Shown here: positions 1,381 to 33,079 of the stretch, piece after piece | Position numbering within the stretch: the first letter of the stretch is position 1 | Layout of the letters: the number at the start of each line of letters is the position of its first letter | Assembly: GCA_044225365.1 (NCBI GenBank) | Contig: JBGAIQ010000014.1 | Span: forward strand, 64,001-128,000 | Direction: 5' to 3' | DNA length: 64,000 bases | From: Planctomycetota bacterium | GTDB taxonomy: Bacteria > Planctomycetota > B15-G4 > JADJEK01 | Program-made: the position numbers and the translations under genes | The notes under the pieces: model-generated | What the model saw: only the letters and a program-made list of their open reading frames with translations | Databases searched by the model: none | Told to the model about the DNA's origin: nothing

Positions 1381-2427
1381 TCAGGGCCCGATTCGTTTCG
1401 TAGCGACGAACCAATCGAAGATGCGCTTCGCCGCGTAAGCGTGGCCCTTGGCATTCGGATGGACGAAGTCGTCGGCGGCTTCGGGTCGCTTCCAGATGCG
1501 GTAGTCGGTGTCCTTCCACTCCGCGAGCAGATCGACGAGCGGGACCTTCAACTCGTTCGTGACCTTGATGAGACCGCGCTCGGTATTCCAGTCGACTTGC
1601 AGGTACTGATCGAAGGGGCCTTGCAGATAGGGAAAGGCACACACGATCAGCGCTAGGTTCTTCTCGGTCGCGAACTGCGACAGCTTGGCGAGCGACGCGA
1701 ACTGCGAATCCGGATCGAACAACAATCCGAATTTCAGGTCCGCATTCGCGCGATACGTGCCGCTCTCCTTCATGTGTGAGATCTCACGCGCCGCGAGGAA
1801 GGTCCGATACAGCGCGGAGTGCTCGATCAGGAACGGGCTGTAGAGCGCACGCCCCGAACCCTGGCGGAAGTAGCGGAGATGGTCGCCCTCGCGGAAGACG
1901 ATCGGCGTCGAGTGCACGTCGTTCGGGCAGTGCGCGACGACGACCGCATCGGGTGCGAGCGGCATGCCGCGATGCACCAACCAATCCCATTCCTGCTCGG
2001 TGTTGTAGCTGATGACACCGGCATTGAGGACCTCGATCGTCCGGTCCGGATAACGCTGCCGCAGCAGCGTCTCGAGCACGGAGGACATCGTCTCCTCGGG
2101 CTTCACGCCGATGCCGTAGGCGATCGAGTCTCCGAGCACGATCACGCGATACGCGCCCGCGGGCTTCTCCACCCGAATCTCGCGCATGCGCATCCCGAGG
2201 GAGTTGATCTCTTCGGTCGCGTGCGGCCGGATCTCGAAGCCTCGGACGGAACCGTCGACGAGCTGATAGAAGTCCGTCCGCATGTTCAACTGATCGTCGA
2301 ACTGCGCCTGCGCGAACTTGCCGAGACGAACTCGACACACCCACTCGGCGAGCAGGAGGACGACGACGAACGATCCCGCGCCGAGCGCGAGTCGCTGGAG
2401 GAGGCTCGATCGTGCCTTGCCCGTCAT
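1381..2427 (-). CDS. SGNH/GDSL hydrolase family protein, paralog of 361-1353
   Basis: Motifs IVLGDS, VLNAGV, HCPND and DFVHPN; ATGA overlap with the kbl stop. Confidence 0.88.
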   Translation of the reverse strand: MTGKARSSLLQRLALGAGSFVVVLLLAEWVCRVRLGKFAQAQFDDQLNMRTDFYQLVDGSVRGFEIRPHATEEINSLGMRMREIRVEKPAGAYRVIVLGDSIAYGIGVKPEETMSSVLETLLRQRYPDRTIEVLNAGVISYNTEQEWDWLVHRGMPLAPDAVVVAHCPNDVHSTPIVFREGDHLRYFRQGSGRALYSPFLIEHSALYRTFLAAREISHMKESGTYRANADLKFGLLFDPDSQFASLAKLSQFATEKNLALIVCAFPYLQGPFDQYLQVDWNTERGLIKVTNELKVPLVDLLAEWKDTDYRIWKRPEAADDFVHPNAKGHAYAAKRIFDWFVATKRIGP

Positions 2428-3614
2428 CGCACGACGCCGAGCTTCCTTCCCACCTTGGTGAACGCCGCGACGGCCTGCTCGACCATGTCGGGCGTGTGTG
2501 CCGCGGAGAGCTGGACACGAATTCGGTCCTGCTTCTTCGGAACCACGGGATACGTGAATGCGATCACGTAGACACCCTCACCGAGCAGCTCTTCCGCCAT
2601 CTTCTGGGCGACCTTCGGGTCGTAGAGCATCACCGGCACGATCGGATGGAACCCCGGCTTGATGTCGAAGCCCGCGGCCGTCATGCCCTCACGGAATCGT
2701 TTCGCGTTCTTCTCGAGCCGGTCGCGCAGCTCGGTCGACTTCGAGATCAAATCGAGCGCGGCGATCGAACCACCGGCCACGGCCGGCGGCAACGTGTTCG
2801 AGAACAGATACGGTCGCGAACGCTGGCGCAGGAGGTCGATGATCGGCTTCTTCCCCGTCGTGAATCCACCGACCGCGCCGCCGAGCGCCTTGCCGAGCGT
2901 CGACGTGATGACGTCGATCCGCTTCATGACACCGAAGTGCTCCGGCGTACCGCGCCCGGTCTTGCCGATGAAGCCCGTCGCGTGCGATTCGTCGACCATC
3001 ACCATGGCGGAGTGCTTCTCCGCGAGGTCGCAGATCTTGTCGAGCGGCGCGAGATCGCCGTCCATCGAGAACACACCGTCGGTCACGATGATCTTGTCGC
3101 GGAGCGACGCGGCGTCCTTCAGCTTTGCCTCGAGATCGCTCATGTCCGCGTGCTCGTAGATGAAGCGCTGCGCCTTCGCGAGGCGTACGCCATCGATGAT
3201 CGACGCGTGGTTCAGCTTGTCCGCGACGATCGCGTCCTCGGCGCCCAGCACGCATTCGAAGATGCCGCCGTTCGCGTCGAAGCAGCTCGTGTAGACGATC
3301 GTGTCCTCGGTCCCGAAGAACTCGCAGATCTTCTTCTCGAGCGCCTTGTGCACGTCCTGCGTGCCGCAGATGAAGCGCACCGACGACAAGCCGTAGCCAC
3401 GCTCGTCGAGGGTGCGATGCGCGGCGGCGACGAGTTCCGGATGCGAGGAGAGGCCGAGATAGTTGTTCGCGCAGAAGTTCAGGTACTCGCGTCCACCGAC
3501 GCGGATCCGCGCGCCCTGCGGCGACTCGATGATGCGCTCGTTCTTGAAGACGCCGTCGGCCTTGATCTGCTCGAGGGTGGATTCGATACGAGCGCGGGCT
3601 TGATCGCTGAACAT
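2424..3614 (-). CDS. kbl: Glycine C-acetyltransferase (2-amino-3-ketobutyrate CoA ligase)
   Basis: NFCANNYLGL, SSVRFICGTQ, SCFDANGG, LNHASIIDG, TLGKALGG (PLP Lys), LRQRSRPYLFSN, RIRVQLSAAH; GGAG RBS. Confidence 0.95.
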   Translation of the reverse strand: MFSDQARARIESTLEQIKADGVFKNERIIESPQGARIRVGGREYLNFCANNYLGLSSHPELVAAAHRTLDERGYGLSSVRFICGTQDVHKALEKKICEFFGTEDTIVYTSCFDANGGIFECVLGAEDAIVADKLNHASIIDGVRLAKAQRFIYEHADMSDLEAKLKDAASLRDKIIVTDGVFSMDGDLAPLDKICDLAEKHSAMVMVDESHATGFIGKTGRGTPEHFGVMKRIDVITSTLGKALGGAVGGFTTGKKPIIDLLRQRSRPYLFSNTLPPAVAGGSIAALDLISKSTELRDRLEKNAKRFREGMTAAGFDIKPGFHPIVPVMLYDPKVAQKMAEELLGEGVYVIAFTYPVVPKKQDRIRVQLSAAHTPDMVEQAVAAFTKVGRKLGVVR

Positions 3615-21892: not shown

Positions 21893-23827
21893 TCAGAACT
21901 TGCTGGCCTTGAGGTAACTCCCCGCCTGAACCGTCGTCGTCGTTCCGGCGGACGCAGTGTTCTGCGCCCACTGCATACGAACCGTGCCCGCCGTCGCTCC
22001 GGTGACCACCATTCCGCGGATCAGGCCCATGTCCGCAGGTAGGCCGCCGAACAGGTACATCGGGATCGCCGAGCCCCCGGCGGCAACGACGAACTGATCG
22101 AATCCGTTGTTGTCGTTGGTCCCGACGAGGGACCATTTGATCGTCGCGCCGGCCGGAATGGTGAAGGCGATCTTGAGGTTCGGGGTCGCGTTCGAGGCAA
22201 AGGCAGAGACGAACACGTCGAATCCCCAGGCCTCATTCGCACCGACCGCGAACGACAGCTCGTCATCGTTTTGGAGTGCGGCACTGTTCGCGACCACTTC
22301 ATCCACGGTCTTGCGGACCTTCGTGTCGCCCGGACCCGCTGGACCCTGAGGCCCCTGCGGACCTTGCGGGCCCACTGGGCCTTGCGGACCCGTCGCGCCG
22401 GTGATGCCCTGTGGGCCTTGCGGACCTGCGGGGCCCGTTGGACCCGTCGCCCCGGTCGCTCCGGTCAAACCGATCGGACCCACGTCGCCCTGAACTCCCT
22501 GCGGACCCGTCGCTCCTTGCGGGCCTTGCGGTCCAGCCGCGCCTGCGGGGCCCACGTCACCTTGCGGACCTTGGGGGCCTTCCGGACCTTGCGGGCCGAC
22601 CGAACCCGTTGCTCCGGTGTCGCCCTGCGGGCCCTGTGGGCCTTGCGGGCCGGCTGCGCCTGCGGGGCCCACGTCACCTTGCGGACCTTGGGGACCGGCT
22701 GGACCTGTCGCACCCGTCGCGCCCGTATCGCCCTGCGGGCCCTGTGGACCTTGCGGTCCGGCTGCGCCGACGGGGCCCACGTCACCTTGCGGACCTTGGG
22801 GACCGGCTGGACCCGTCGCGCCCGTCGCGCCCGTGTCGCCCTGCGGGCCCTGTGGACCTTGCGGTCCGGCTGCGCCGACGGGACCCACTTCGCCTTGCGG
22901 ACCTTGAGGGCCGGCTGGACCTGTCGCACCCGTCGCGCCCGTGTCGCCCTGCGGGCCTTGCGGACCCTGCGGTCCAGTTGCGCCGACGGGGCCCGCTTCG
23001 CCTTGGGGACCTGTCGCACCCGTCGCGCCCGTGTCGCCCTGCGGACCTTGCGGACCCGTCGCGCCGGTGTCGCCCTGCGGACCTTGCGCACCCGTTGCGC
23101 CGGTGTCGCCCTGCGGACCTTGCGGACCCTGCGGTCCAGTTGCGCCGACGGGGCCCACTTCGCCTTGGGGACCTGTCGCACCCGTCGCGCCCGTGTCGCC
23201 CTGCGGACCTTGCGGACCCTGCGGTCCAGTTGCGCCGACGGGGCCCACTTCACCTTGCGGCCCCTGGGGACCCGTTGCCCCAGTTGCGCCGGTGTCGCCC
23301 TGCGGACCCTGCGGACCCATCGGGCCGATCGGGCCCTGCGGACCCTGCAGCCCCGTCGCACTACCGACCCAGTTGCCGTTCTCGTCGATCACGAGCAGGC
23401 CATTGATCGAGACGCTCTTCGGGTGGATGTCGCCGCAGACGTCGCGCGCGAAGAGGGCGTACGGGACCGAGCCGATGAGCTGGCGCGGAGACATCTCGGG
23501 GTCCGTGCCGATCGTCAGGCCGAGCCACAGATCATTTCCGCTGCCGAACAAATTGCTCGGGAACGTGGTGATGGAACCGAGGAACGTATTCACGACGCCG
23601 TTCAGGGCCGTGACCGACTGGGTCTCCGTCCAAACCGGCGATCCGCCGGACGGCGAGTAATAAAGACTCGCCTTGAGCGAGATCCCCGGACCGTTGAGAG
23701 GCTGACCCGCGCCGTTCTTCAATCGCGCCTGGAAGTAGAGAACATCCGGCGATCCTCCGTAGGCCACAGCGCACAGGGAGAGAGTGGTGGCGAGCGTCAA
23801 GCTCGCGATCAAGGACTTCAGGTTCAT
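21893..23827 (-). CDS. Secreted collagen-like protein
   Basis: Signal peptide, ~135 aa N-domain, about 113 Gly-X-Y triplets ([12 protein letters not shown]), ~144 aa C-terminal beta domain. Confidence 0.92.
22337..23353 (-). repeat. Coding tandem repeat (9-bp Gly-X-Y units with higher-order blocks)
   Basis: Near-identical blocks encoding [28 protein letters not shown](D/E)VGP(V/A)GAA. Confidence 0.9.
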
Positions 23828-23903: not shown

Positions 23904-24770
23904 TCAGAGAATCGCGGTCGTCGATGCGTTCGTTAGCTTTCCCGGCGGGAAACCGGACGCGAAGATCGAGAGCGATTGGAAGTGCACGACGAGGCCCGAC
24001 AAGATCGGGGCGACCGGCACGAAGATGTCGATGGAATCCACGCCCAGCGGACCAGGGTACGGCGTCGGCGGAATGAGTTGCAGGAACGGCACAGGGCCGA
24101 TCAGCAACGTCCCGTAGGGCTTGGCGAGGATGGAGGTCGTCGACGTCGAAACGAACGTCGTATACATATCCCCGAGTGAGCCGTAGTTCGTGATATTGAG
24201 CGTCCCACCGAGCATCACGGTCGGCGACGTCGTGATCGCCGGCGTGTAGATGAAGCCCGTGGGATCGGTCACGGAACCGAAGCTATTCACCATTTCGACG
24301 GGCCGCTCGCCGACGAGACCCGGAGGGGTCGTGAACGTCGCAAGCGTGTTGGAGAGCACCTGCACGTCCGTCGCCGGTTCGCCGCCTACGAGCACCTGCA
24401 TCGTTGGACCCGATCCGAACTTGTCGAAGTTCAAACCCGAGACGACAACGGGTGTACCTCCCGCGGTTCCACCGAAATTCGGCGTGATGCTGAAGATCAC
24501 GAGGCCCGCCGGAAGATCCGGATCGAAGCTCTCGAGGAACCCAACCCCCGCCATCGAATTCGTAGCGCTGAACGTGCCGCCCGAGACCTCTCCGACGGTC
24601 GAATACGCAATCCCATCGACGGAACACGTCCCGCCTCCGGTCGTTCCGAGACCCAAACCATCGAGTTGATAGTTTGGGCTCTGCGAGACCTGAGCGAGCG
24701 CGCTCGCCGTGATTCCCAAGGTCAATGCGAGCATCTGCAAGCCTCGCCTCGACCGACTCCTCGACTTCAT
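23904..24770 (-). CDS. Secreted IPT/TIG domain protein
   Basis: GAGG RBS; signal peptide ending ALA-Q; ITPNFGGTAGGTPVVVSGLNF...TTPP IPT/TIG motif. Confidence 0.8.
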   Translation of the reverse strand: MKSRSRSRRGLQMLALTLGITASALAQVSQSPNYQLDGLGLGTTGGGTCSVDGIAYSTVGEVSGGTFSATNSMAGVGFLESFDPDLPAGLVIFSITPNFGGTAGGTPVVVSGLNFDKFGSGPTMQVLVGGEPATDVQVLSNTLATFTTPPGLVGERPVEMVNSFGSVTDPTGFIYTPAITTSPTVMLGGTLNITNYGSLGDMYTTFVSTSTTSILAKPYGTLLIGPVPFLQLIPPTPYPGPLGVDSIDIFVPVAPILSGLVVHFQSLSIFASGFPPGKLTNASTTAIL

Positions 24771-25038
24771 GCTGACCTCACTTTCAAGGAAACAAGCTCG
24801 ACGAACGTGGTCTCTCCCGCCGACGGTTTCGTCCGCCGTTGAATCGTTCCCACTCGTCTCGCCATCGCACCCGAAACCCACGACGCCCGCCCGAGTCACG
24901 GCGCGTCGTTCAACGAACTCCTCCGGAATCGCCGAAGGAGGTCCCCTCCGTCGTGCATTCGCGATGCTCGAAAGAGCGATCGTCCGGCACGACGGGATCC
25001 GCTCCTCACGAAACGACCCACGCGGTGTCGCCGACTAC

Positions 25039-25054
25039 AGCAGTTCCCATGCCG
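25039..25054 (-). promoter_or_regulatory. Candidate sigma54 -24/-12 promoter for the IPT/collagen genes
   Basis: Minus strand CGGCATGGGAACTGCT: GG-N10-GC spacing with GGCA and TGCT. Confidence 0.4.
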
Positions 25055-25154
25055 CGCGGCGCGTTGCCCCTCCACCTGCGCCGATTCACGAATACGATCG
25101 TTCTCCGCCGCTCGAATTCGATTTGAAACGCGACTCGGTCAGCGGACCCATCGT

Positions 25155-25181
25155 TGGAAAATCACTTTCCACTTTGGAAAG
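25155..25181. promoter_or_regulatory. Overlapping AT-rich palindromes, candidate transcription-factor (enhancer) sites
   Basis: TGGAAA-ATCAC-TTTCCA-CTT-TGGAAAG in a high-GC background, 100-130 bp upstream of the candidate sigma54 site. Confidence 0.45.
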
Positions 25182-25211
25182 GAACTGAACAACGCGTGTC
25201 CCCAACGCCGT

Positions 25212-25601
25212 TCAACCGCGCTCGATTCGATCTTCTTCACGCGGACCGGACTTCCAGGTCGTTCTTCGCTCGAGATGATGGCGCACGATCTTCTCGCGCA
25301 GTGTCGGACGACTGATACCGAGCAAGGCGGCCGATCGCGCCAGGTGCCCACCGGTCTTCGTCAGAGCTTCGACGATCAACGCGACGTCGAGTTGTTCGAT
25401 GATCCAACGATGCGCATGCATCGGCGCCGAGTCGAGGCTCGTCCTCGCGAGCGCCCGCAGCGTCTGTCGTATGTCGAGATCCTCGGTCCGCGGGGCGCCA
25501 GCTTCCGATTGGAATGAAACGGAGTGCCCGAGCGCGGACATCATTCTCTCGAGTTCCAAGGTCGTTTCTTCGTCGCCGTCGACGATGACGATTCGAGCCA
25601 A
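25212..25601 (-). CDS. Small Fis-type HTH protein with a partial receiver N-terminus
   Basis: AGGAGG RBS and TTG start; RIVIVDGDE...LG receiver beta1-alpha1; LIVEAL..TGG....AALLGISR.TLR.K HTH_8. Confidence 0.75.
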   Translation of the reverse strand: MARIVIVDGDEETTLELERMMSALGHSVSFQSEAGAPRTEDLDIRQTLRALARTSLDSAPMHAHRWIIEQLDVALIVEALTKTGGHLARSAALLGISRPTLREKIVRHHLERRTTWKSGPREEDRIERG

Positions 25602-25721
25602 TCTCCCTCCTTGAAGTGCGTGGGGCGCGGCGGGTGTAGCGCGGCTACATGTACCGACGCGCGCGACCGACGAATGAAGAGCAATCGTCGGGCCACGACC
25701 ACTCTTCGTGGCGACGAGCGC

Positions 25722-27578
25722 TCAGGCCGGAGCGGTCGGAGTGATCGAATCGAGAACCGCCCGCACTTTCGAAGTCATTCCGCGCGGCGTGACCGGCTTT
25801 TGTAAGAAGAACTCGCTGGAATGCAGGATGCCGTGACGAAGGATGGCGTCGTCGGTATAGCCCGACATGAAGAGTACTTTGGCGTGGGGCTGAGCGTCAC
25901 GCACCCTTGCGGCGAGCTCTCGACCGTTCATCTTCGGCATCACGACATCGGTGAGCAGGAGATCGATCGGGATCGACGAGTCGGAGCAGAGTCGAAGCGC
26001 CTCCGTCGGATCCCGCGCTTCGATGACTCGATACCCCGCGCGGCTCAAGATCGATTTCGATACTCCTCGCAAGCTCTCGTCGTCGTCCACCAATAGAATC
26101 GTCTCGCTCCCGGATGCCAGGCTGGGCGCCCCGACGGGAGCGGGCTCCGCGGTGCGGCCTTCACCGCGCGGCAGGTAGATCTTGAAGGTGGTGCCAACTC
26201 CCACTTCGCTATAGAGCCAGATCGCTCCCCCGCTTTGAGCGACGATGCCGAAGACCGTCGACAGGCCGAGTCCTGTGCCCTTTCCCTTGTCCTTCGTCGT
26301 GAAGAACGGCTCGTAGATCCGCGCCTGCGTGGCTTTGTCCATGCCACCGCCCGTATCGCTCACGACCAACACGGAATAGTCGCCGGGGACCATTTTCACG
26401 TGATCGATCGTGTACTCCTCGTCGAGGTGCGCCGTCGAAGTCGAAATCGTGAGCGTGCCACCGTTCGGCATCGCATCGCGCGCATTCACCACGAGGTTCA
26501 AGATCACTTGCTCGACCTGACTCCGATCGACCAGCACGCGCCACGATGTCGGATCGAGACGGAAATTCAATTCGACGTCTTCGCCGACGATCCGCTCGAG
26601 GATCTTCCGCAAGTTGGTGATGACGTCGTTGAGATCGAGGACGCTCGGTGCGAGCACTTGCTGGCGACTGAAAGCGAGGAGTTGGCGCGTGAGGTCTGCG
26701 GCACGGGTTGCGGCCTTCAACACCTCTTCGAGGGCGCCCCGATGACGATCGGCTGCGGGCAGGTCGTCGAGCACCAGATCGGCGTAGCTCATGATGACGG
26801 AGAGGATGTTGTTGAAGTCGTGAGCGATTCCTCCCGCGAGGCGCCCGATCGACTCCATCTTCTGCGCCTGACGGAATTGCTGCTCGGTTCGCTCGAGTTT
26901 CTCGACGGTCCGTTGACGGGCCTGGATCTCGCTCTCGAGTTGCTTCCTAGCGACGTCCGCGGCCTCGGAACGTTCCTGCAGCTTCGACTCGAGCTCGGTC
27001 TTCAGCTCCTGCAGTTCTCGATTCGCGTCCTGGACCTCCCTGGCTCGTTGCAACACGTCGACCGCCATGTGTCGGGTCGCCGCCGACTGGCCCTCGTCCG
27101 ATGCGCCGCGTTCGAGGAGGCGAATGTACTCCGTGACGTCTTCGACTCGGTGGATGATGAAATCAACCGCGCCCCTCTCGTCGAGCATGGGGCAATTGAT
27201 CGGGCTCCAGTATCGCTCCTCGAAACCTCCGCCCTCTGTTTCCGCCCGCTCGATGTCGTACTTCTGAACCGCCATCGTGTCCGGGCGACCCGTCGCGAGA
27301 ACCCGCTCGAGAGAAGCACGAAGCGTGGCGACGCCCGTCGCGTGAGCGTCTTCGGGATTGTCGGGAAACGCGTCGAAGATCTCGCGGCCCAGGAGATCGG
27401 CGCGGGTCCGCATCGTCGCGTCGAGGTAGGCATCCGTCACCGCCACGATCTCGAATCGTCGATTCAAGACCAGGAAGCAACCCGGCGCCGACTCGAAGAG
27501 TCGCCGATAATCCACGCCAGGGCTCTGCGGATCGGAAAGCAAATCGGAACCTACTTCTCTCGCCGGACTCGGACGCAA
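25722..27578 (-). CDS. PAS-domain hybrid sensor histidine kinase/response regulator (CckA-like architecture)
   Basis: PAS_4, QAQKMESIGRLAGGIAHDFNN, NLVVNARDAM, FFTTK..GKGTGLGL, receiver LLLTDVVMP; start uncertain. Confidence 0.92.
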   Translation of the reverse strand: MRPSPAREVGSDLLSDPQSPGVDYRRLFESAPGCFLVLNRRFEIVAVTDAYLDATMRTRADLLGREIFDAFPDNPEDAHATGVATLRASLERVLATGRPDTMAVQKYDIERAETEGGGFEERYWSPINCPMLDERGAVDFIIHRVEDVTEYIRLLERGASDEGQSAATRHMAVDVLQRAREVQDANRELQELKTELESKLQERSEAADVARKQLESEIQARQRTVEKLERTEQQFRQAQKMESIGRLAGGIAHDFNNILSVIMSYADLVLDDLPAADRHRGALEEVLKAATRAADLTRQLLAFSRQQVLAPSVLDLNDVITNLRKILERIVGEDVELNFRLDPTSWRVLVDRSQVEQVILNLVVNARDAMPNGGTLTISTSTAHLDEEYTIDHVKMVPGDYSVLVVSDTGGGMDKATQARIYEPFFTTKDKGKGTGLGLSTVFGIVAQSGGAIWLYSEVGVGTTFKIYLPRGEGRTAEPAPVGAPSLASGSETILLVDDDESLRGVSKSILSRAGYRVIEARDPTEALRLCSDSSIPIDLLLTDVVMPKMNGRELAARVRDAQPHAKVLFMSGYTDDAILRHGILHSSEFFLQKPVTPRGMTSKVRAVLDSITPTAPA

Positions 27579-27675
27579 CCGAAACCGTGCGTCGCAGGGA
27601 TCTCTCCGCCGCGCCGCACGGTCATTATGGGATTCGATCCCTGCCGTTTCGAGAGTCGTCCGAACTTTCGAGCGA

Positions 27676-30600
27676 TTAACGTCGATCCGTCGGGTAGAGC
27701 ACGACCTTCATCGTCTCGTTCCTGCGGAAGCGGGCCATCGCGTCGGGGAATTCATCGAGGCTCGCCTCGTGCGTTACGAGGTGCGAGACGTCCAGGCCGG
27801 CGCGGAGCAGCCCGAGCATCTGGAACCACGTGTCGTACATCCGGCGCCCGATGATGCCCTTGATGTTCTTGCCTTTGAAAACGACCTCGCCGTTCCAATC
27901 GTGGAGCGTGAGCGCCTTCTCCTTGCCGATACCGAGTTCGACGAGATCGCCGCCCCAGCGCGTCATCTCGAGCGCGTCGTTGATCGCGTCGGGATGACCC
28001 GAGATCTCGAGTGCCGCGTCGACGCCCTTCCCATCCGTCCTCCGCTTGATCTCCGTCATCGCGAGCTTGCGCTTCTCGAGGCTTCCGGTATCGAGCACCA
28101 CGACGCGCTCGAGTCCCCGCGGGTGCTTGGCATTGATCCCTGCGGCCCACTTCTTGGCGTGCGCAACGTTGAAGGGATGCACCTCGGTCACGAAGACCTG
28201 TGCAGCGCCCATGAACTCGACGACGGCCGCGGCCATCGCACCGATCGGGCCGTACCCGATCACCGCGATGTCACGGCCCGAGACGCTCGTCGCCTGCGCG
28301 CAGTGCATCGCGTTGCCGAGCGCATCGAGGAATGCACCGACCTTGAGCGGCACCGCCGCGCGATCGAGCTTGATGACGTTCGTCGCCGGAACGACGACGT
28401 AATCCGCAAAGCTGCCGTCCTGATGCAGGCCGCAGATGACGGTACGCTCGCAGGCGTGACCATTGCCGGTCTGGCAAGGGACACAACGCCCGCAGACGAC
28501 GTGCATCTCGGCCGTGACGTAGTCGTCGATCGCAAAGCCGAACCCCTCGGCACCCGGGCCGAAAGCGTCGATCTCGCCGCAGAACTCGTGGCCGAGCGTG
28601 CGCGGCGGTTTCGCCTTCTCGATCACCGTCGCATCGCCGGCGCAGAGATGTTTGTCGGTGCCGCAGATGCCGGCCGCGAGGACCTTGATCCGGACCTGGC
28701 CGGGCCCCGGCTCCGGAATCGGCACGTCGCGCAGGAGCTTCGCCTCACCGACGCCCATGAGCCGAACGGCACGCATCACGCCGCCCGAGACACTCGGTCG
28801 CGGTGCCGCGGGAGTCGCGGCGCCGTCGGCCGAGGGCTGAGTGATCGGCTCGAGGACACTCGTGAGCGAACGGCTCGCGACTTCGCGCTTCAACGCGTTG
28901 ATCACGCTGTCGACGCCCATCGTGCCGATGTTGACGCCGTCGCGTCGGCGAACGTTGACCTGCCCGTTCTCGGCTTCCTTGTCGCCGACGACGAGCACGT
29001 AGTTGACCTTCTTCATCGAGGCATCGCGCACCTTGGAGCCGAGCTTGCCGCCGCCCATGTCGACGCTCGCGCGGATGCCCGCCGCCTTCAGTTTGGAGAG
29101 CGCGATCTGACAGGCAGCCTCGTGACGATCGGTCGCAACGGGGACGATGCGCACCTGTTCGGGCGCGAGCCAGAGCGGGAACGCGCCGCCGAAGTGCTCG
29201 ATGAGGATCGCGAACATGCGCTCCATCGAACCCAGGATCGCGCGATGCACCACCACCGGACGAGTCCGGCCGCCTTGCGCGTCGGCGAAGTAGAGATCGA
29301 ATTTCTCGGGGAGGGAGAAGTCGACCTGGATCGTCGCGAGCTGCCATTCGCGCTTCAGCGAATCGAGGACCTTGAAGTCGATCTTCGGGCCGTAGAACGC
29401 GCCATCACCGGGGGCGACCTCGTAGGCCGCGCCGAGTCGTTTCAACGACGTTGCGATCGCGGCTTCGGCGTTGTCCCACATCGCTTCGCTGCCGGTTCGC
29501 GATTCCGGACGCGTCGCGAAGAACAGCTTCACGTCCTCGAATCCGAAGACTCCATATACCTCGCGCACGAATGCCACGAGCGCTTCGATCTCGTCCTGGA
29601 GTTGTTCCGGGGCGCAGTAGATGTGCGCGTCGTCCTGCGTGAACGATCGCACGCGCGTGAGGCCACTCATCACGCCGGCCTTCTCGAAGCGATGGCAGAG
29701 CCCAAACTCCGCGAGACGCAGCGGTAGATCGCGATACGAGCGGATGTCCTGCTTGAACACGAAGGCCGAGCCGGGGCAATTCATCGGCTTCATGCCGATC
29801 CGTGGCTCGTCGAGCACTTCCTTCGGGTCGCCGTCATGGTGCACGAAGAACATGTTCTCGCGGTAATGCGTCATGTGGCCCGTCGTGCGCCAGACGCTCG
29901 TGTCGAGGACGACCGGGGTCTTCACCTCGACGTAGCCCTTCGCCTTCAGCTTCTCGCGCATCATCTCTTCGATGGCGTTGCGGCACACCATGCCGTTCGG
30001 CAGCCAGATCGGATGCCCGGGGGCTTCGGGGATGATGTGGAACAGAGCGAGGTCCTTGCCGAGCAGGCGATGATCGCGCTTCTTCGCTTCTTCGCGATTC
30101 TTCAGAAACTCATCGAGTTCCTCCTTCTTGAAGAACGCGGTCGCGTAGATGCGCTGCAACGACTCGCGCTTCTCGTTTCCCCGCCAGTACGCGGCGGCGA
30201 CCGAGAGCACCTTGAACGCCTTGCCGACCTTGCCAGTCGAGGGAAGGTGCGGACCGCGACAGAGGTCGGTGAATTCGCCCTGCGAGTAGAAGGAAATCGG
30301 TGCGTCGTCGGGCAATTCGTTGACGAGTTCCTTCTTCAGCTTCGCTCGACCCGCGCCATCGAGTCGCGCGCAGGCGTCGGCCTTGCTGTCGGCGATGAAG
30401 CGCGAGAGTTGCAGGTCCTCGTCGACGATCTTCTTCATCTCCGCTTCGACTTCATCGAGGAACTCGGGAGTGAAGGCTTTGTCGACCTCGAAGTCGTAGT
30501 AGAAGCCGTCGTCGATCACGGGGCCGATCGCGAACTCCACCTTGTCGCGGCCGAGCTTGCGCGCAACTGCCTGAGCGAGGACGTGCGCCGCGGTGTGGCG

Positions 30601-30819
30601 GAGGACCTCTAGGCCTTCCTTGGTGCCCGGATTCACGATCGCGAGCGCGCCGCCGGAATAGAGCGGAGTGTGAAGGTCGAAGATGCGGCCATCGACCGTG
30701 ACCGCGAGCGTCTTCTTCGCGTCGGGGATCTTGGACAACAGCTCTTTGATCGTTCGGCCCGCCGCCAGGGTGAGCTTCGATCCGTCGGCCAGGGTGAAGG
30801 TCAGCTCGCTTCCGCTCAT
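27676..30819 (-). CDS. thrS: Threonyl-tRNA synthetase fused to L-threonine 3-dehydrogenase (ThrRS-Tdh)
   Basis: Residues ~1-650: TGS, RHTAAH, DLCRGPH, LQRIY, RDHR, KPMNCP, SYRDLPLR, RVRSFTQDDAH, GAFYGPKID, HRAILGS.ER, WLAPEQV, anticodon domain. Residues 682-1047: GICGTD, GHEF, C.RC..C...H.C, D.LGNA, GYGPIG, GI.GR.M..TW. Confidence 0.93.
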   Translation of the reverse strand: MSGSELTFTLADGSKLTLAAGRTIKELLSKIPDAKKTLAVTVDGRIFDLHTPLYSGGALAIVNPGTKEGLEVLRHTAAHVLAQAVARKLGRDKVEFAIGPVIDDGFYYDFEVDKAFTPEFLDEVEAEMKKIVDEDLQLSRFIADSKADACARLDGAGRAKLKKELVNELPDDAPISFYSQGEFTDLCRGPHLPSTGKVGKAFKVLSVAAAYWRGNEKRESLQRIYATAFFKKEELDEFLKNREEAKKRDHRLLGKDLALFHIIPEAPGHPIWLPNGMVCRNAIEEMMREKLKAKGYVEVKTPVVLDTSVWRTTGHMTHYRENMFFVHHDGDPKEVLDEPRIGMKPMNCPGSAFVFKQDIRSYRDLPLRLAEFGLCHRFEKAGVMSGLTRVRSFTQDDAHIYCAPEQLQDEIEALVAFVREVYGVFGFEDVKLFFATRPESRTGSEAMWDNAEAAIATSLKRLGAAYEVAPGDGAFYGPKIDFKVLDSLKREWQLATIQVDFSLPEKFDLYFADAQGGRTRPVVVHRAILGSMERMFAILIEHFGGAFPLWLAPEQVRIVPVATDRHEAACQIALSKLKAAGIRASVDMGGGKLGSKVRDASMKKVNYVLVVGDKEAENGQVNVRRRDGVNIGTMGVDSVINALKREVASRSLTSVLEPITQPSADGAATPAAPRPSVSGGVMRAVRLMGVGEAKLLRDVPIPEPGPGQVRIKVLAAGICGTDKHLCAGDATVIEKAKPPRTLGHEFCGEIDAFGPGAEGFGFAIDDYVTAEMHVVCGRCVPCQTGNGHACERTVICGLHQDGSFADYVVVPATNVIKLDRAAVPLKVGAFLDALGNAMHCAQATSVSGRDIAVIGYGPIGAMAAAVVEFMGAAQVFVTEVHPFNVAHAKKWAAGINAKHPRGLERVVVLDTGSLEKRKLAMTEIKRRTDGKGVDAALEISGHPDAINDALEMTRWGGDLVELGIGKEKALTLHDWNGEVVFKGKNIKGIIGRRMYDTWFQMLGLLRAGLDVSHLVTHEASLDEFPDAMARFRRNETMKVVLYPTDRR

Positions 30820-31029
30820 CGATCAGGTCTCCGGTGTCTCGCGCCCGCCCGAACTCTCGGGCCTGGCCGAATCGGAACAGGATATCGGGTCGCTGCCGCA
30901 GGACATAGGGCATGGGTGCCCGTCGCTCCGACATCGTGAATTGCGGGCGATTCCGAGGATTCCGCGGGACACCCGGGATGACACCTGGATCTGTACTGCG
31001 CACCTCGTTCCTCGAACCGGATCCTCGTC

Positions 31030-32334
31030 ATGCGCCCTTCGATCCTCACCGCCCTGTTCTCTGCGTTCTTCCTCACCACGAATGGGTTTGCGACCATCGA
31101 AGCGATCGATGTGAAGCCCGGGAAGCCGTTCGTCGACCCGCCCGGGAAGCCGCAGCCGAACGCCGGCTGCGGCAGCATCTCGGCATCCAAGAATGGTCGC
31201 TACGTCGCGTTCTTGTCGGGTGCGACGAACCTCGTGAAGGGACTGCATCCGAACAAGACGCAGGCCTACCGCACCGATCGAGTGACGAACACGACGATCT
31301 GCATCTCGCTCGCGAAGAACCACGCACCGGCGAATGACGACGTGCTCGATGTCTCTCTCTCGGGCAACGGGCGCTACGCTGTGATCGTGACGCGTGCGTC
31401 GAACCTCGGGACGCCGTTCAACGGATTCGTCCAGGCGATCTTCGAGGACCTGAAGACCGGAAAGCGCCTCACCGCATCGCTCGCGGCATTCCAGCCGTAT
31501 TTGAATCTCGACTGTGATCGGGCGTTCATCAGCGGCGATGGCTCGACGGTGGTCTTCGAGACGGCGGCCTCGAACGTCCTTGCGGTCGGCAACAACGGGA
31601 AGAAACAACTCTACGCCTGGGATCGCTTCTCGAACGATGTCGATGCGTTGTCCTTCAGCCCCCAGGGTCAACCCGGCAACGCGGACACCCATGGATCGAG
31701 CGGTGTCGGAATCTCGAAGGACGGCAAGTTCGTGACCTTTGCCTCCGACGCGACGAACCTAGTGTCCGCGAACCCCGGCAACCCGTCGTACCTCGACGTC
31801 TTCGTGCGCGACCGCGCGGTCGGAACGACGGAGCTCATTTCGAGGAACTTCTCCGGAGGCGCCGCCAACAAGGCGAGCACCCATCCGTCGATCTCCGAAG
31901 ACGGTCGGTACGTCGGCTACGTCTCGACGGCGAGCAACATCACCACGGACGACAACGATGGCAATGACTACGACTGCTTCTTCTACGATCGCCAGTTGAA
32001 TCTGAGCTCGCGCATCGATGGGTACAACGATGGCGATGCCTTGATGACTTTGCTCTCGACGACCATTTCGGCAGATGGACGGTATCTCTTCGCGCTCGGA
32101 ACGAAGATGCATCCGACCGATTCGAATCTCCATATCCAGAATGCGCGCCGCTACGACCGGCTGACGGGCGAGACGGTGGTGTACCAAGTCGCGGCTCCGC
32201 TGTTCGTTCAGCAGTACGACTGGTTCTATGAGATCGCGATCTCGGGCAACGCCAAGAAGCTCTTCTTCGTATCGGCGAGTCCGATCCTGCCGAAGGCCTC
32301 GGACACCTATCAGATCTACGCAACGAAGCTGTGA
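31030..32334 (+). CDS. Secreted TolB/PD40-like beta-propeller protein
   Basis: Signal peptide; repeated IS.DGR(Y/F)V.F.S.A.NL and DVFVRDR motifs. Confidence 0.82.
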   Translation: MRPSILTALFSAFFLTTNGFATIEAIDVKPGKPFVDPPGKPQPNAGCGSISASKNGRYVAFLSGATNLVKGLHPNKTQAYRTDRVTNTTICISLAKNHAPANDDVLDVSLSGNGRYAVIVTRASNLGTPFNGFVQAIFEDLKTGKRLTASLAAFQPYLNLDCDRAFISGDGSTVVFETAASNVLAVGNNGKKQLYAWDRFSNDVDALSFSPQGQPGNADTHGSSGVGISKDGKFVTFASDATNLVSANPGNPSYLDVFVRDRAVGTTELISRNFSGGAANKASTHPSISEDGRYVGYVSTASNITTDDNDGNDYDCFFYDRQLNLSSRIDGYNDGDALMTLLSTTISADGRYLFALGTKMHPTDSNLHIQNARRYDRLTGETVVYQVAAPLFVQQYDWFYEIAISGNAKKLFFVSASPILPKASDTYQIYATKL

Positions 32335-32401
32335 GCGGTCGCCGCTTCGACATCGATCGGTAGAGTGCTTTCGCCTTCGATTCGATGGACCGGACCCGCG
32401 A

Positions 32402-33079
32402 ATGCCACTACCTCTCGACACGATCCTGTCCCGACTGGCTGACCGCTACGGCAAGATCCCGGAGCCGCCGCCGAAGACCGCATTCGAGTCGATCCTCCAC
32501 GAATGCGCTTGCTACTTGGTGGACGACGAGCGACGGGATGCGGTCTTCGAAGAGCTGAAACGGCGCGTCGGCTGCTCGCCTCGCGAGCTGCTGCGGGCCG
32601 ATCGAGGTGAACTCCTCGCGATCCTGGAGCCCGGCGGCATGCGCCCGCCGATGCGACTGGAGAAGGTGATCGACGCAGCAACGATCTGCATCGAAACGCA
32701 TGGGGGCGATCTCGATTCGGTACTCGGATTGCCCGTGAAGGCCGCCGTCAAGGAACTGCGCCGCTATCCCGGCATTGGCATCCCGAGCGCACAGCGAATC
32801 CTGCTGTTCCACGCCAAGGTACCCTCGCTCGCTCTCGAGTCGAACGGCCTACGAGTTCTGTTGCGATTGGGACACGGCCGCGAGGATCCGCGTTACGACG
32901 TGGCCTACAAGTCGGTTCAGACCTCTCTGGCGGCCGAGGTCGGCACCGACTGCAAGCGCCTGACCCGCGCCCATCTATTGTTGCGCCATCACGGGAAGGT
33001 TACCTGCAAGCGCAGCGAACCGTGCTGCGACGAGTGCCCGCTCGCGAAGGATTGCCCATCGCGAGCAACTTCGCGTTGA
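32402..33079 (+). CDS. HhH-GPD (endonuclease III-like) DNA glycosylase family protein with 4Fe-4S motif
   Basis: L..YPGIG HhH; C.......C..CPL...C C-terminal cluster motif. Confidence 0.8.
   Translation: MPLPLDTILSRLADRYGKIPEPPPKTAFESILHECACYLVDDERRDAVFEELKRRVGCSPRELLRADRGELLAILEPGGMRPPMRLEKVIDAATICIETHGGDLDSVLGLPVKAAVKELRRYPGIGIPSAQRILLFHAKVPSLALESNGLRVLLRLGHGREDPRYDVAYKSVQTSLAAEVGTDCKRLTRAHLLLRHHGKVTCKRSEPCCDECPLAKDCPSRATSR

Follow-up and report, generated by a model that had tools for sequence, protein, structure and literature searches.

A stretch of 64,000 nucleotides from a Planctomycetota bacterium (contig JBGAIQ010000014.1, positions 64,001 to 128,000; hereafter the window, in whose own coordinates all positions are given) encodes on its minus strand a protein in which a complete threonyl-tRNA synthetase (ThrRS) is followed, in the same chain, by a zinc-dependent dehydrogenase of the L-threonine 3-dehydrogenase (Tdh) clade. 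To our knowledge, it is rare for an aminoacyl-tRNA synthetase to be fused to an enzyme that breaks down the amino acid it charges. We favour the reading, at a probability of about 0.7, that this gene, thrS-tdh, specifies one bifunctional ThrRS-Tdh polypeptide whose halves are joined by a flexible tether. Its parts are laid out as follows:

27676..30819, minus strand: the whole fused open reading frame (ORF) thrS-tdh, a single ATG-initiated frame of 1047 codons plus stop (protein P0001)
30625..30819, minus strand: TGS-like N-terminal beta-grasp domain, residues 1-65, from a sub-cut-off Pfam TGS match and the predicted fold
30115..30624, minus strand: N2 editing domain, residues 66-235, with HTAAH and DLCRGPH (tRNA_SAD)
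29185..30114, minus strand: class II catalytic core, residues 236-545, with the zinc-site motifs KPMNC, QDDAH and HRA
28870..29184, minus strand: HGTP anticodon-binding domain, residues 546-650, from Pfam
28780..28869, minus strand: linker rich in Pro, Ala and Ser, residues 651-680, originating from the ThrRS C-terminal tail, from disorder prediction and an alignment of 15 sequences
28777-28779, minus strand: Met681, the former start codon of Tdh, retained directly after the linker
27679..28779, minus strand: zinc-dependent MDR dehydrogenase of the kbl-linked L-threonine 3-dehydrogenase clade, residues 681-1047, from Pfam, NCBIfam, trees and fold

The minus-strand translation of 27676..30819 is uninterrupted, whereas stops abound when the interval is read on the plus strand. 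A first-pass annotation, made from the letters of the window, had described the 1047-codon frame as holding a complete ThrRS and a Tdh-type dehydrogenase without giving its strand; this description holds, and all the ThrRS and dehydrogenase motifs that it named are present in the translation. Pfam places tRNA_SAD at residues 175-225, tRNA-synt_2b at 340-543, HGTP_anticodon at 555-645, ADH_N at 705-819 and ADH_zinc_N at 858-1005, and the NCBIfam models TIGR00418 and NF003808 match the protein at E-values of 1e-192 and 1e-88, values that exclude chance as the source of the domain assignment. An AlphaFold2 model of the fused protein, built from a 51-row alignment, has a mean predicted local distance difference test (pLDDT) value of 91.5 and a predicted template modelling score of 0.63; with this model as the Foldseek query, no top match listed covers both halves. 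The 652-codon ORF at 27769-29727 on the opposite (plus) strand is a shadow of the fused gene and not a gene, as expected where the G+C content at third codon positions (GC3) is about 0.85.

The same in-frame fusion recurs in relatives. Among 60 of these, the 11 genomes of the same family, f1, include five that carry it (G003, G005, G008, G010 and G011), and the 49 from outside f1 include none. The proteins of G005, G010 and G011 are 72-73% identical to that of the window, and that of G008, encoded by a 1072-codon ORF, 67%; in G003 the open frame crosses the junction, after which the contig ends. Together with the window's own, the fused genomes number six, from three genera; all are metagenome-assembled drafts and, as kin, not independent, and the 'Planctomycetota bacterium' records L035-L037, being the same contigs as G005, G010 and G011, add no further cases. 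Further, when residues 560-1047 were searched against 5.8 billion clustered proteins, ten of the 45 matches (P0002-P0011) proved to carry both ThrRS and ADH domains. These ten, drawn from JGI, Logan and NCBI sources, show 68-92% identity, and seven of them are full length at 1033-1049 residues. Where such proteins bear public names, they are called only 'threonyl-tRNA synthetase' or 'threonine dehydrogenase-like'. The close relatives, which the first-pass annotation had named as one check of the fusion, bear it out.

Contigs from public sequencing runs, aligned over 28300-29400, are free of insertions and deletions. One of 820 nt from run X1, which may be the source sample, is identical across 28579-29398. 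Another, of 1882 nt and from run X4 of a different study, differs over 28300-28944 by 20 substitutions without a gap, so that it spans the junction free of the indel that the first-pass annotation had considered might surface there. At about 28789-28859, run X5 lists no contigs and run X6 short ones only; these are holes in coverage and not evidence. Beyond the clade, no ThrRS-dehydrogenase fusion occurs among the best 150 of 48450 matches in a library of 1.84 billion representatives, a search blind to fusions whose ThrRS part scores below about 389 bits. The fused proteins within that set are P0005, P0008 and P0011 alone, all of the same clade, and the seven unfused matches longer than 850 residues in it lack an ADH domain.

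The N-terminal 650 residues have the makings of a functional ThrRS. TIGR00418 (thrS), whose cut-off is 383.65, scores 641.6 bits over residues 74-646 and 644 bits in the search of the genome, and Pfam recognizes tRNA_SAD (E = 1e-14), tRNA-synt_2b (E = 7e-42) and HGTP_anticodon (E = 9e-21). The editing, catalytic and anticodon-binding domains, and probably the TGS domain, are shared with the canonical bacterial enzymes of E. coli (1qf6) and S. aureus (1nyq), at 41% identity and template modelling (TM) scores of 0.83-0.91: Foldseek aligns the half to 1nyq_B over 657 columns, the N-terminus included, at TM 0.91 and to 1qf6 at 0.83, and the catalytic domain to the E. coli and Salmonella catalytic-domain structures at 0.94-0.97. 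In contrast to these enzymes, the window protein adds a C-terminal tail and a dehydrogenase of 367 residues. For the TGS domain, which the first-pass annotation had listed as kept, the predicted beta-grasp-like fold, which superposes on full-length ThrRS, lends support, but the Pfam match over residues 9-62 is marginal, at 20.2 bits (E = 6e-4) where the cut-off is 22.2, and is absent from the whole-protein list at E<=0.01. In the AlphaFold2 model, residues 1-65 form strands at 5-9, 15-19, 39-48 and 57-62 with pLDDT of 83-94.

The ThrRS motifs lie at residues 75 (HTAAH), 185 (DLCRGPH), 344 (KPMNC), 395 (QDDAH) and 525 (HRA). KPMNC, QDD[AG]H and HR[AVT] are conserved in every fused sequence that covers those sites, and we take their Cys, His and His to be the active-site zinc ligands by analogy with E. 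coli ThrRS. The window protein has the editing motifs HTAAH and CRGPH, as do 11 of the 12 sequences that extend over the site. The remaining one, P0007, from a Logan contig, is degenerate, with RDTTAH for RHTAAH and CGGAQ for CRGPH, and has an intact synthetic site and intact Tdh motifs; it may represent a fused ThrRS without editing.

Of six thrS matches in the window's genome (103 contigs, 94% complete), the fused gene alone exceeds the cut-off. It is likewise the sole thrS over the cut-off in the five fused relatives, with an additional 127-bit fragment on a short contig in G008. Because it is the organism's only ThrRS, the fused gene is not a dispensable paralogue, and its standing as the sole thrS of a 94% complete genome argues that it charges tRNA-Thr. 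The best Tdh-like gene of the same genome is again the fused domain, at 299 bits with the next at 133, in a search that covered the MDR type and not the non-homologous SDR type. Whether there was a second thrS or tdh, a point raised by the first-pass annotation, is thereby answered: the genome has neither another thrS nor another close homologue of this Tdh.

The C-terminal 367 residues, in turn, are best explained as a zinc- and NAD-dependent Tdh that would oxidize threonine. A PDB sequence search places five L-threonine 3-dehydrogenases first (2dq4, 2dfv, 2d8a, 5kia and 3gfb, at 212-229 bits), with the next match at 133, and Foldseek superposes the half on the P. horikoshii enzyme 2dfv at TM 0.93. 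The motifs GICGTDKH (residue 717), GHE (743), four cysteines (from 776), GYGPIG (855) and GIIGRRMYDTW (988) are in place; the catalytic Cys, the His-Glu pair, the four structural cysteines and GxGxxG are kept in all 15 fused sequences and align to 2dq4. The half thus shares its fold, zinc ligands, NAD motif and kbl association with the zinc-dependent MDR Tdh enzymes that work with Kbl (2dq4, 2dfv, 3gfb), and differs from them in its attachment to ThrRS, in scoring below the equivalog cut-offs, and in an insertion of about 18 residues in the cofactor domain relative to the solved Tdh structures. E. coli, too, has a zinc-dependent Tdh with Kbl, in its kbl-tdh operon.

The two Tdh models score 297.3 bits (NF003808, cut-off 380) and 278.7 bits (TIGR00692, cut-off 458.35) against residues 683-1042, and the next NCBIfam dehydrogenase model, IolM, 151.7. 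As a calibration of NF003808, four kbl-linked standalone relatives of the same subclade reach 323-368 bits and two more distant ones pass, at 412 and 443. Because the kbl-linked standalone kin also fall below the cut-off, the low score points to a divergent subclade rather than to another function, and we file the half as a divergent member of the kbl-linked Tdh clade and not as a certified equivalog.

Between the halves lies the Pro/Ala/Ser linker of about 30 residues with mostly G/C-ending codons that the first-pass annotation had described; it is confirmed at residues 651-680, with a GC3 of 0.81 against 0.85 and 0.86 in the flanking halves. In the alignment of the 15 fused sequences it varies in both length (about 24-38 residues) and sequence and is never out of frame. 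In the AlphaFold2 model pLDDT drops below 50 solely at residues 662-675, and residues 649-680 have no secondary structure. The ratio of non-synonymous to synonymous substitution rates (dN/dS) in the linker is nearly neutral, at 0.6-0.9 against 0.2-0.5 for the domains, these values coming from distant pairs in which dS is saturated. Unfused ThrRS proteins of the linked clade, with the exception of G043, which has only a few residues past the end, carry a tail of 20-30 residues rich in Pro, Gly, Ala and Lys that starts with a similar '..PVL.PP'; those of the other clade end right after the anticodon-binding domain. On these comparisons the linker is the former C-terminal tail of the ThrRS. Met681 lines up with the first residue of standalone Tdh. 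The ancestral Met (MRAVRL, shared with G169 and G064) still opens the Tdh half, and the Gly-Gly-Val codons that precede it in several of the fused genes may be what is left of an earlier ribosome-binding site.

The antecedents of the fusion are visible in the gene order of relatives. In a 400-genome sample of the phylum, ThrRS matches at E<=1e-200 occur in 20 of 401 genomes, to which G008 and G011 were added to give 22; within this sample, fusion is confined to family f1. Six of the 22 have the fused gene, three an unfused thrS-tdh-kbl cluster (G043 of family f7, G169 of f38 and G066 of f30), one thrS-tdh (G064 of f28) and four thrS-kbl; the other eight, all of family f59, show no linkage in the fetched flanks. 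In total, 14 of the 22 genomes, from five families, have thrS linked to tdh, to kbl or to both. The four unfused loci with tdh have the same ThrRS clade, Tdh subclade, gene order and strand as the fusion; apart from G043, their ThrRS bears the Pro/Gly/Ala-rich tail, and their Tdh starts with MRAV (G169, G064, G066) or MKAIL (G043). A stop codon and a spacer separate their genes (141 nt in G043, 92 in G169, 8 in G066 and 1 in G064), both of which are lost in the window, where one chain is encoded. A Shine-Dalgarno sequence before tdh is visible in the unfused G169 and G043 and is gone in the window. The gap in G169 holds a hairpin as well as the ribosome-binding site GAAGGAGG. This GC-rich hairpin (1440-1475 of locus L130) comes straight after the stop codon of thrS and ahead of the ribosome-binding site of tdh. 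It may act as an attenuator or terminator and so set the ratio of thrS to tdh in the unfused operon, a control that fusion would abolish.

Trees of the two halves agree with this picture. In the Tdh tree, eight fused domains and the free Tdh of G169 form a nine-row clade with support of 100/99, the fused group by itself having 82/80. In the ThrRS tree, seven fused domains (100/98) are sister to five f38 sequences in a group of 12 rows (100/100), which lies inside a 16-row clade (100/100) with the other tdh-linked ThrRS. Because both halves branch beside one such operon, a single fusion event within a thrS-tdh-kbl module is indicated, and the phylogenies place it in one lineage of family f1, with an older thrS-tdh-kbl operon as its source. 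The ThrRS of the sister genera g2, g3 and g5 of f1 falls in a different Planctomycetota clade (eight rows, 100/99), so that one family holds two deeply separated ThrRS types, that of G001, G002 and G004 versus that of the window's genome, G005, G008 and G010. The fused type is nearest to f38, elsewhere in the phylum, which hints that the thrS-tdh-kbl module as a whole was transferred or else lost differentially: in f1 the module may have replaced the resident thrS, or it may be an old paralogue kept differentially, and with the trees unrooted here we name no donor.

Both halves are under strong purifying selection. In close pairs (G010 versus G005 and G011; dS about 0.2), the ThrRS half has a dN/dS of 0.04-0.05 and the Tdh half one of 0.03. 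The gene for the next enzyme of the route is also encoded in the window:

2424..3614, minus strand: kbl (glycine C-acetyltransferase / 2-amino-3-ketobutyrate CoA ligase), TIGR01822 at 644 bits against a cut-off of 493

In three fused relatives (G005, G010, G011) no more than about 120 nt separate the end of the fused gene from the start of kbl, which in G008 lies 3.5 kb downstream. At loci with standalone Tdh homologues, kbl is present in the fetched stretch in 12 of 15, in 11 of them downstream on the same strand. Among same-family genomes that lack the fusion, five from sister genera show no kbl above the cut-off (0 of 5), and their best Tdh match, at 231 bits, is not a close one; tdh and kbl thus travel together.

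We propose that loss of the thrS stop codon and spacer turned the Pro/Gly/Ala-rich ThrRS tail into a disordered tether of 24-38 residues. The Tdh half would oxidize threonine to 2-amino-3-ketobutyrate, which Kbl would then convert to glycine and acetyl-CoA, if the route runs in the catabolic direction. The fusion would fix 1:1 synthesis and co-localization of the enzymes that commit threonine to translation and to catabolism, and the capacity to degrade threonine would scale with the level of ThrRS. ThrRS is a dimer and zinc-dependent Tdh typically a tetramer, a difference from which the first-pass annotation had drawn a mismatch that could drive higher-order assembly. Such a mismatch need not exist: four chains could form a closed particle of one Tdh tetramer with two ThrRS dimers at its flanks. 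As the linker is predicted to be disordered, varies in length and sequence, and evolves almost neutrally, we favour a passive tether over a rigid signalling interface. A predicted complex of the ThrRS core (residues 236-655) with Tdh (681-1047), run without controls, gave a score of 0.00 and a mark of 0.32, and weighs neither way on binding.

Several points weigh against a single bifunctional chain of this kind. The former Tdh start Met is present in all 15 fused sequences, AAGGG before Met681 in genus g6 makes a separate Tdh by internal initiation possible, and the disordered linker could be cleaved after translation. The Tdh half lies under both NCBIfam equivalog cut-offs and is the most divergent of its subclade. 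In the window's genome kbl is 24 kb from the fused gene and not adjacent to it. None of the 20 runs (12 studies) holding part of the stretch is listed as an RNA run. The advantage of 1:1 coupling is a rationale and not a result. Finally, four f38 genomes with thrS-kbl imply that the linkage of thrS is not strictly dependent on Tdh. In these (G266, G204, G074 and G281; L131-L134), kbl directly follows thrS without an intervening tdh, and no MDR Tdh is found genome-wide at E<=1e-40; either an unrelated, SDR-type Tdh serves Kbl there, or the linkage has a reason of its own.

The first of these points lead to the best-surviving alternative, which we still consider unlikely: that the cell also, or mainly, makes free Tdh, by initiation at Met681 or by proteolysis in the linker, with the fusion serving as a translational-coupling device. 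Met681 matches the first residue of standalone Tdh, all 15 fused sequences keep it, the linker is predicted to be disordered, and in g6 genomes AAGGGCGG stands 6-13 nt upstream of Met681, resembling the Shine-Dalgarno GAAGGAGG of the unfused G169. However, the window copy has no AGGAGG-like element before Met681, the GC3 of the linker, 0.81, matches coding sequence, and the frame has survived several changes of linker length, which would be unnecessary if only the separate products mattered.

A more elaborate version of the tethered enzyme, akin to the allosteric control floated by the first-pass annotation (of Tdh by tRNA, or of charging by NAD), would make it, and the older thrS-tdh-kbl operon from which it came, a threonine homeostat, in which occupancy of ThrRS by uncharged tRNA-Thr or threonine alters the geometry or activity of the Tdh tetramer within a closed (ThrRS2)2-Tdh4 particle. 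We regard this as doubtful. Were it true, the breakdown of threonine to glycine and acetyl-CoA would be confined to times of full tRNA-Thr charging, and amino-acid catabolism would be coupled directly, at the post-translational level, to the charging state of the tRNA.

It is improbable, in our estimate, that Tdh-Kbl acts instead in the biosynthetic direction, from glycine and acetyl-CoA through 2-amino-3-ketobutyrate to threonine, feeding the tethered ThrRS. The two enzymes are reversible in vitro, as known from the older E. coli literature. Such a role would explain the linkage of thrS to both tdh and kbl (14 of 22 genomes, five families), and co-expressing degradation with the charging enzyme does look counter-intuitive. 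Against it, the sequence gives no indication of direction, a flexible tether of about 30 residues provides proximity and not a channel, and the genome encodes a canonical threonine synthase (NF006050 at 560 bits, cut-off 303), so that the reverse route is not needed. A strict requirement for reverse Tdh-Kbl in threonine supply is ruled out by the same gene.

Still less credible is a change of function in the dehydrogenase half, to another substrate or to a threonine- or NAD-sensing regulatory module for ThrRS: it has the lowest Tdh-model score of its subclade (297 bits versus 323-368 for the standalone proteins) and the insertion of about 18 residues relative to solved structures, but all its zinc ligands and the NAD-binding motif are conserved, its dN/dS of 0.03 is what an enzyme typically shows, three fused relatives have kbl next to the gene, and the five sister-genus genomes without the fusion lack kbl and a close Tdh alike.

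That a missed stop or frameshift joined two adjacent genes, as a 103-contig draft and the adjacent unfused thrS-tdh pairs of other families might invite one to suppose, can be dismissed, since the junction is open, with differing linker lengths, in independent genomes, in clusters from three sources and in a contig of another study, and the differing linker sequences exclude even a systematic error common to all assemblies.

The bifunctional ThrRS-Tdh chain, then, can be set beside other synthetase fusions. Mycobacterial LysX joins LysRS to a lysyl-phosphatidylglycerol synthase, and metazoan Glu-ProRS is a fusion of synthetases. As here, a synthetase is linked to a second enzyme of the same amino acid or process; unlike here, the partner uses the charged tRNA or is itself a synthetase, whereas the partner in the window would compete for the free amino acid and send it to catabolism. 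ThrRS C-termini and this Tdh subclade accept other fusion partners too, in three proteins none of which pairs ThrRS with a dehydrogenase. P0153 (1158 aa) has ThrRS with a C-terminal Aa_trans transporter domain and could be a gene-model artefact, and P0168 (1062 aa) has ThrRS with a C-terminal tRNA_bind domain. In P0012 (704 aa, Gemmatimonadota), a thioredoxin-disulfide reductase precedes a Tdh-like domain that belongs to this subclade and shares 49% identity with that of the window; its free Gemmatimonadota relative L114 has kbl downstream.

In keeping with the first-pass annotation, which knew of no described ThrRS-Tdh fusion, full-text searches, in which papers were seen in part, found no literature on such a fusion or on a link of thrS with tdh and kbl; the papers that name all three genes, a Salmonella transcriptome and an E. 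coli promoter survey, are apparently not about such a link. The linkage of thrS to tdh and/or kbl in five families, ending in a fusion, amounts to Rosetta-stone evidence connecting tRNA-Thr charging with the Tdh-Kbl route. With gaps of 141, 92, 8, 1 and 0 nt and a pre-existing tail reused as linker, these loci also form a stepwise series from operon pair to fusion. The fused protein, a single chain open to two easy assays, offers a tractable system for testing whether physical coupling balances an amino acid between translation and catabolism. If the coupling amounts to stoichiometric co-expression only, the case would be a neat but modest evolutionary one.

Around the fused gene, comparison of eight neighbouring ORFs with the loci of five relatives yielded a weak histidine-kinase match only, and hence no conserved neighbourhood except kbl. 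Immediately downstream of the fused gene lies a hybrid histidine kinase with PAS, HisKA, HATPase_c and receiver domains (25722-27578, minus strand), which, save for that weak match in G008, is not conserved beside the fusion in relatives. Abutting the start of the fused gene is a 289-codon ORF (30823-31692, minus strand), which has no Pfam match and may be spurious. Rfam at E<=1 gave no regulatory RNA match in 25000-33000, and the upstream regions of 14 thrS genes of the clade have 3 of 399 columns fully conserved and no common fold; upstream of thrS in f38, a local motif with promoter-like -10 elements can be made out by eye only. Farther along the minus strand of the window, a 644-residue protein (21893-23827) contains strong collagen triple-helix repeats (Pfam Collagen, 174 bits) and adjoins an IPT/TIG-domain protein (23904-24899, also minus).

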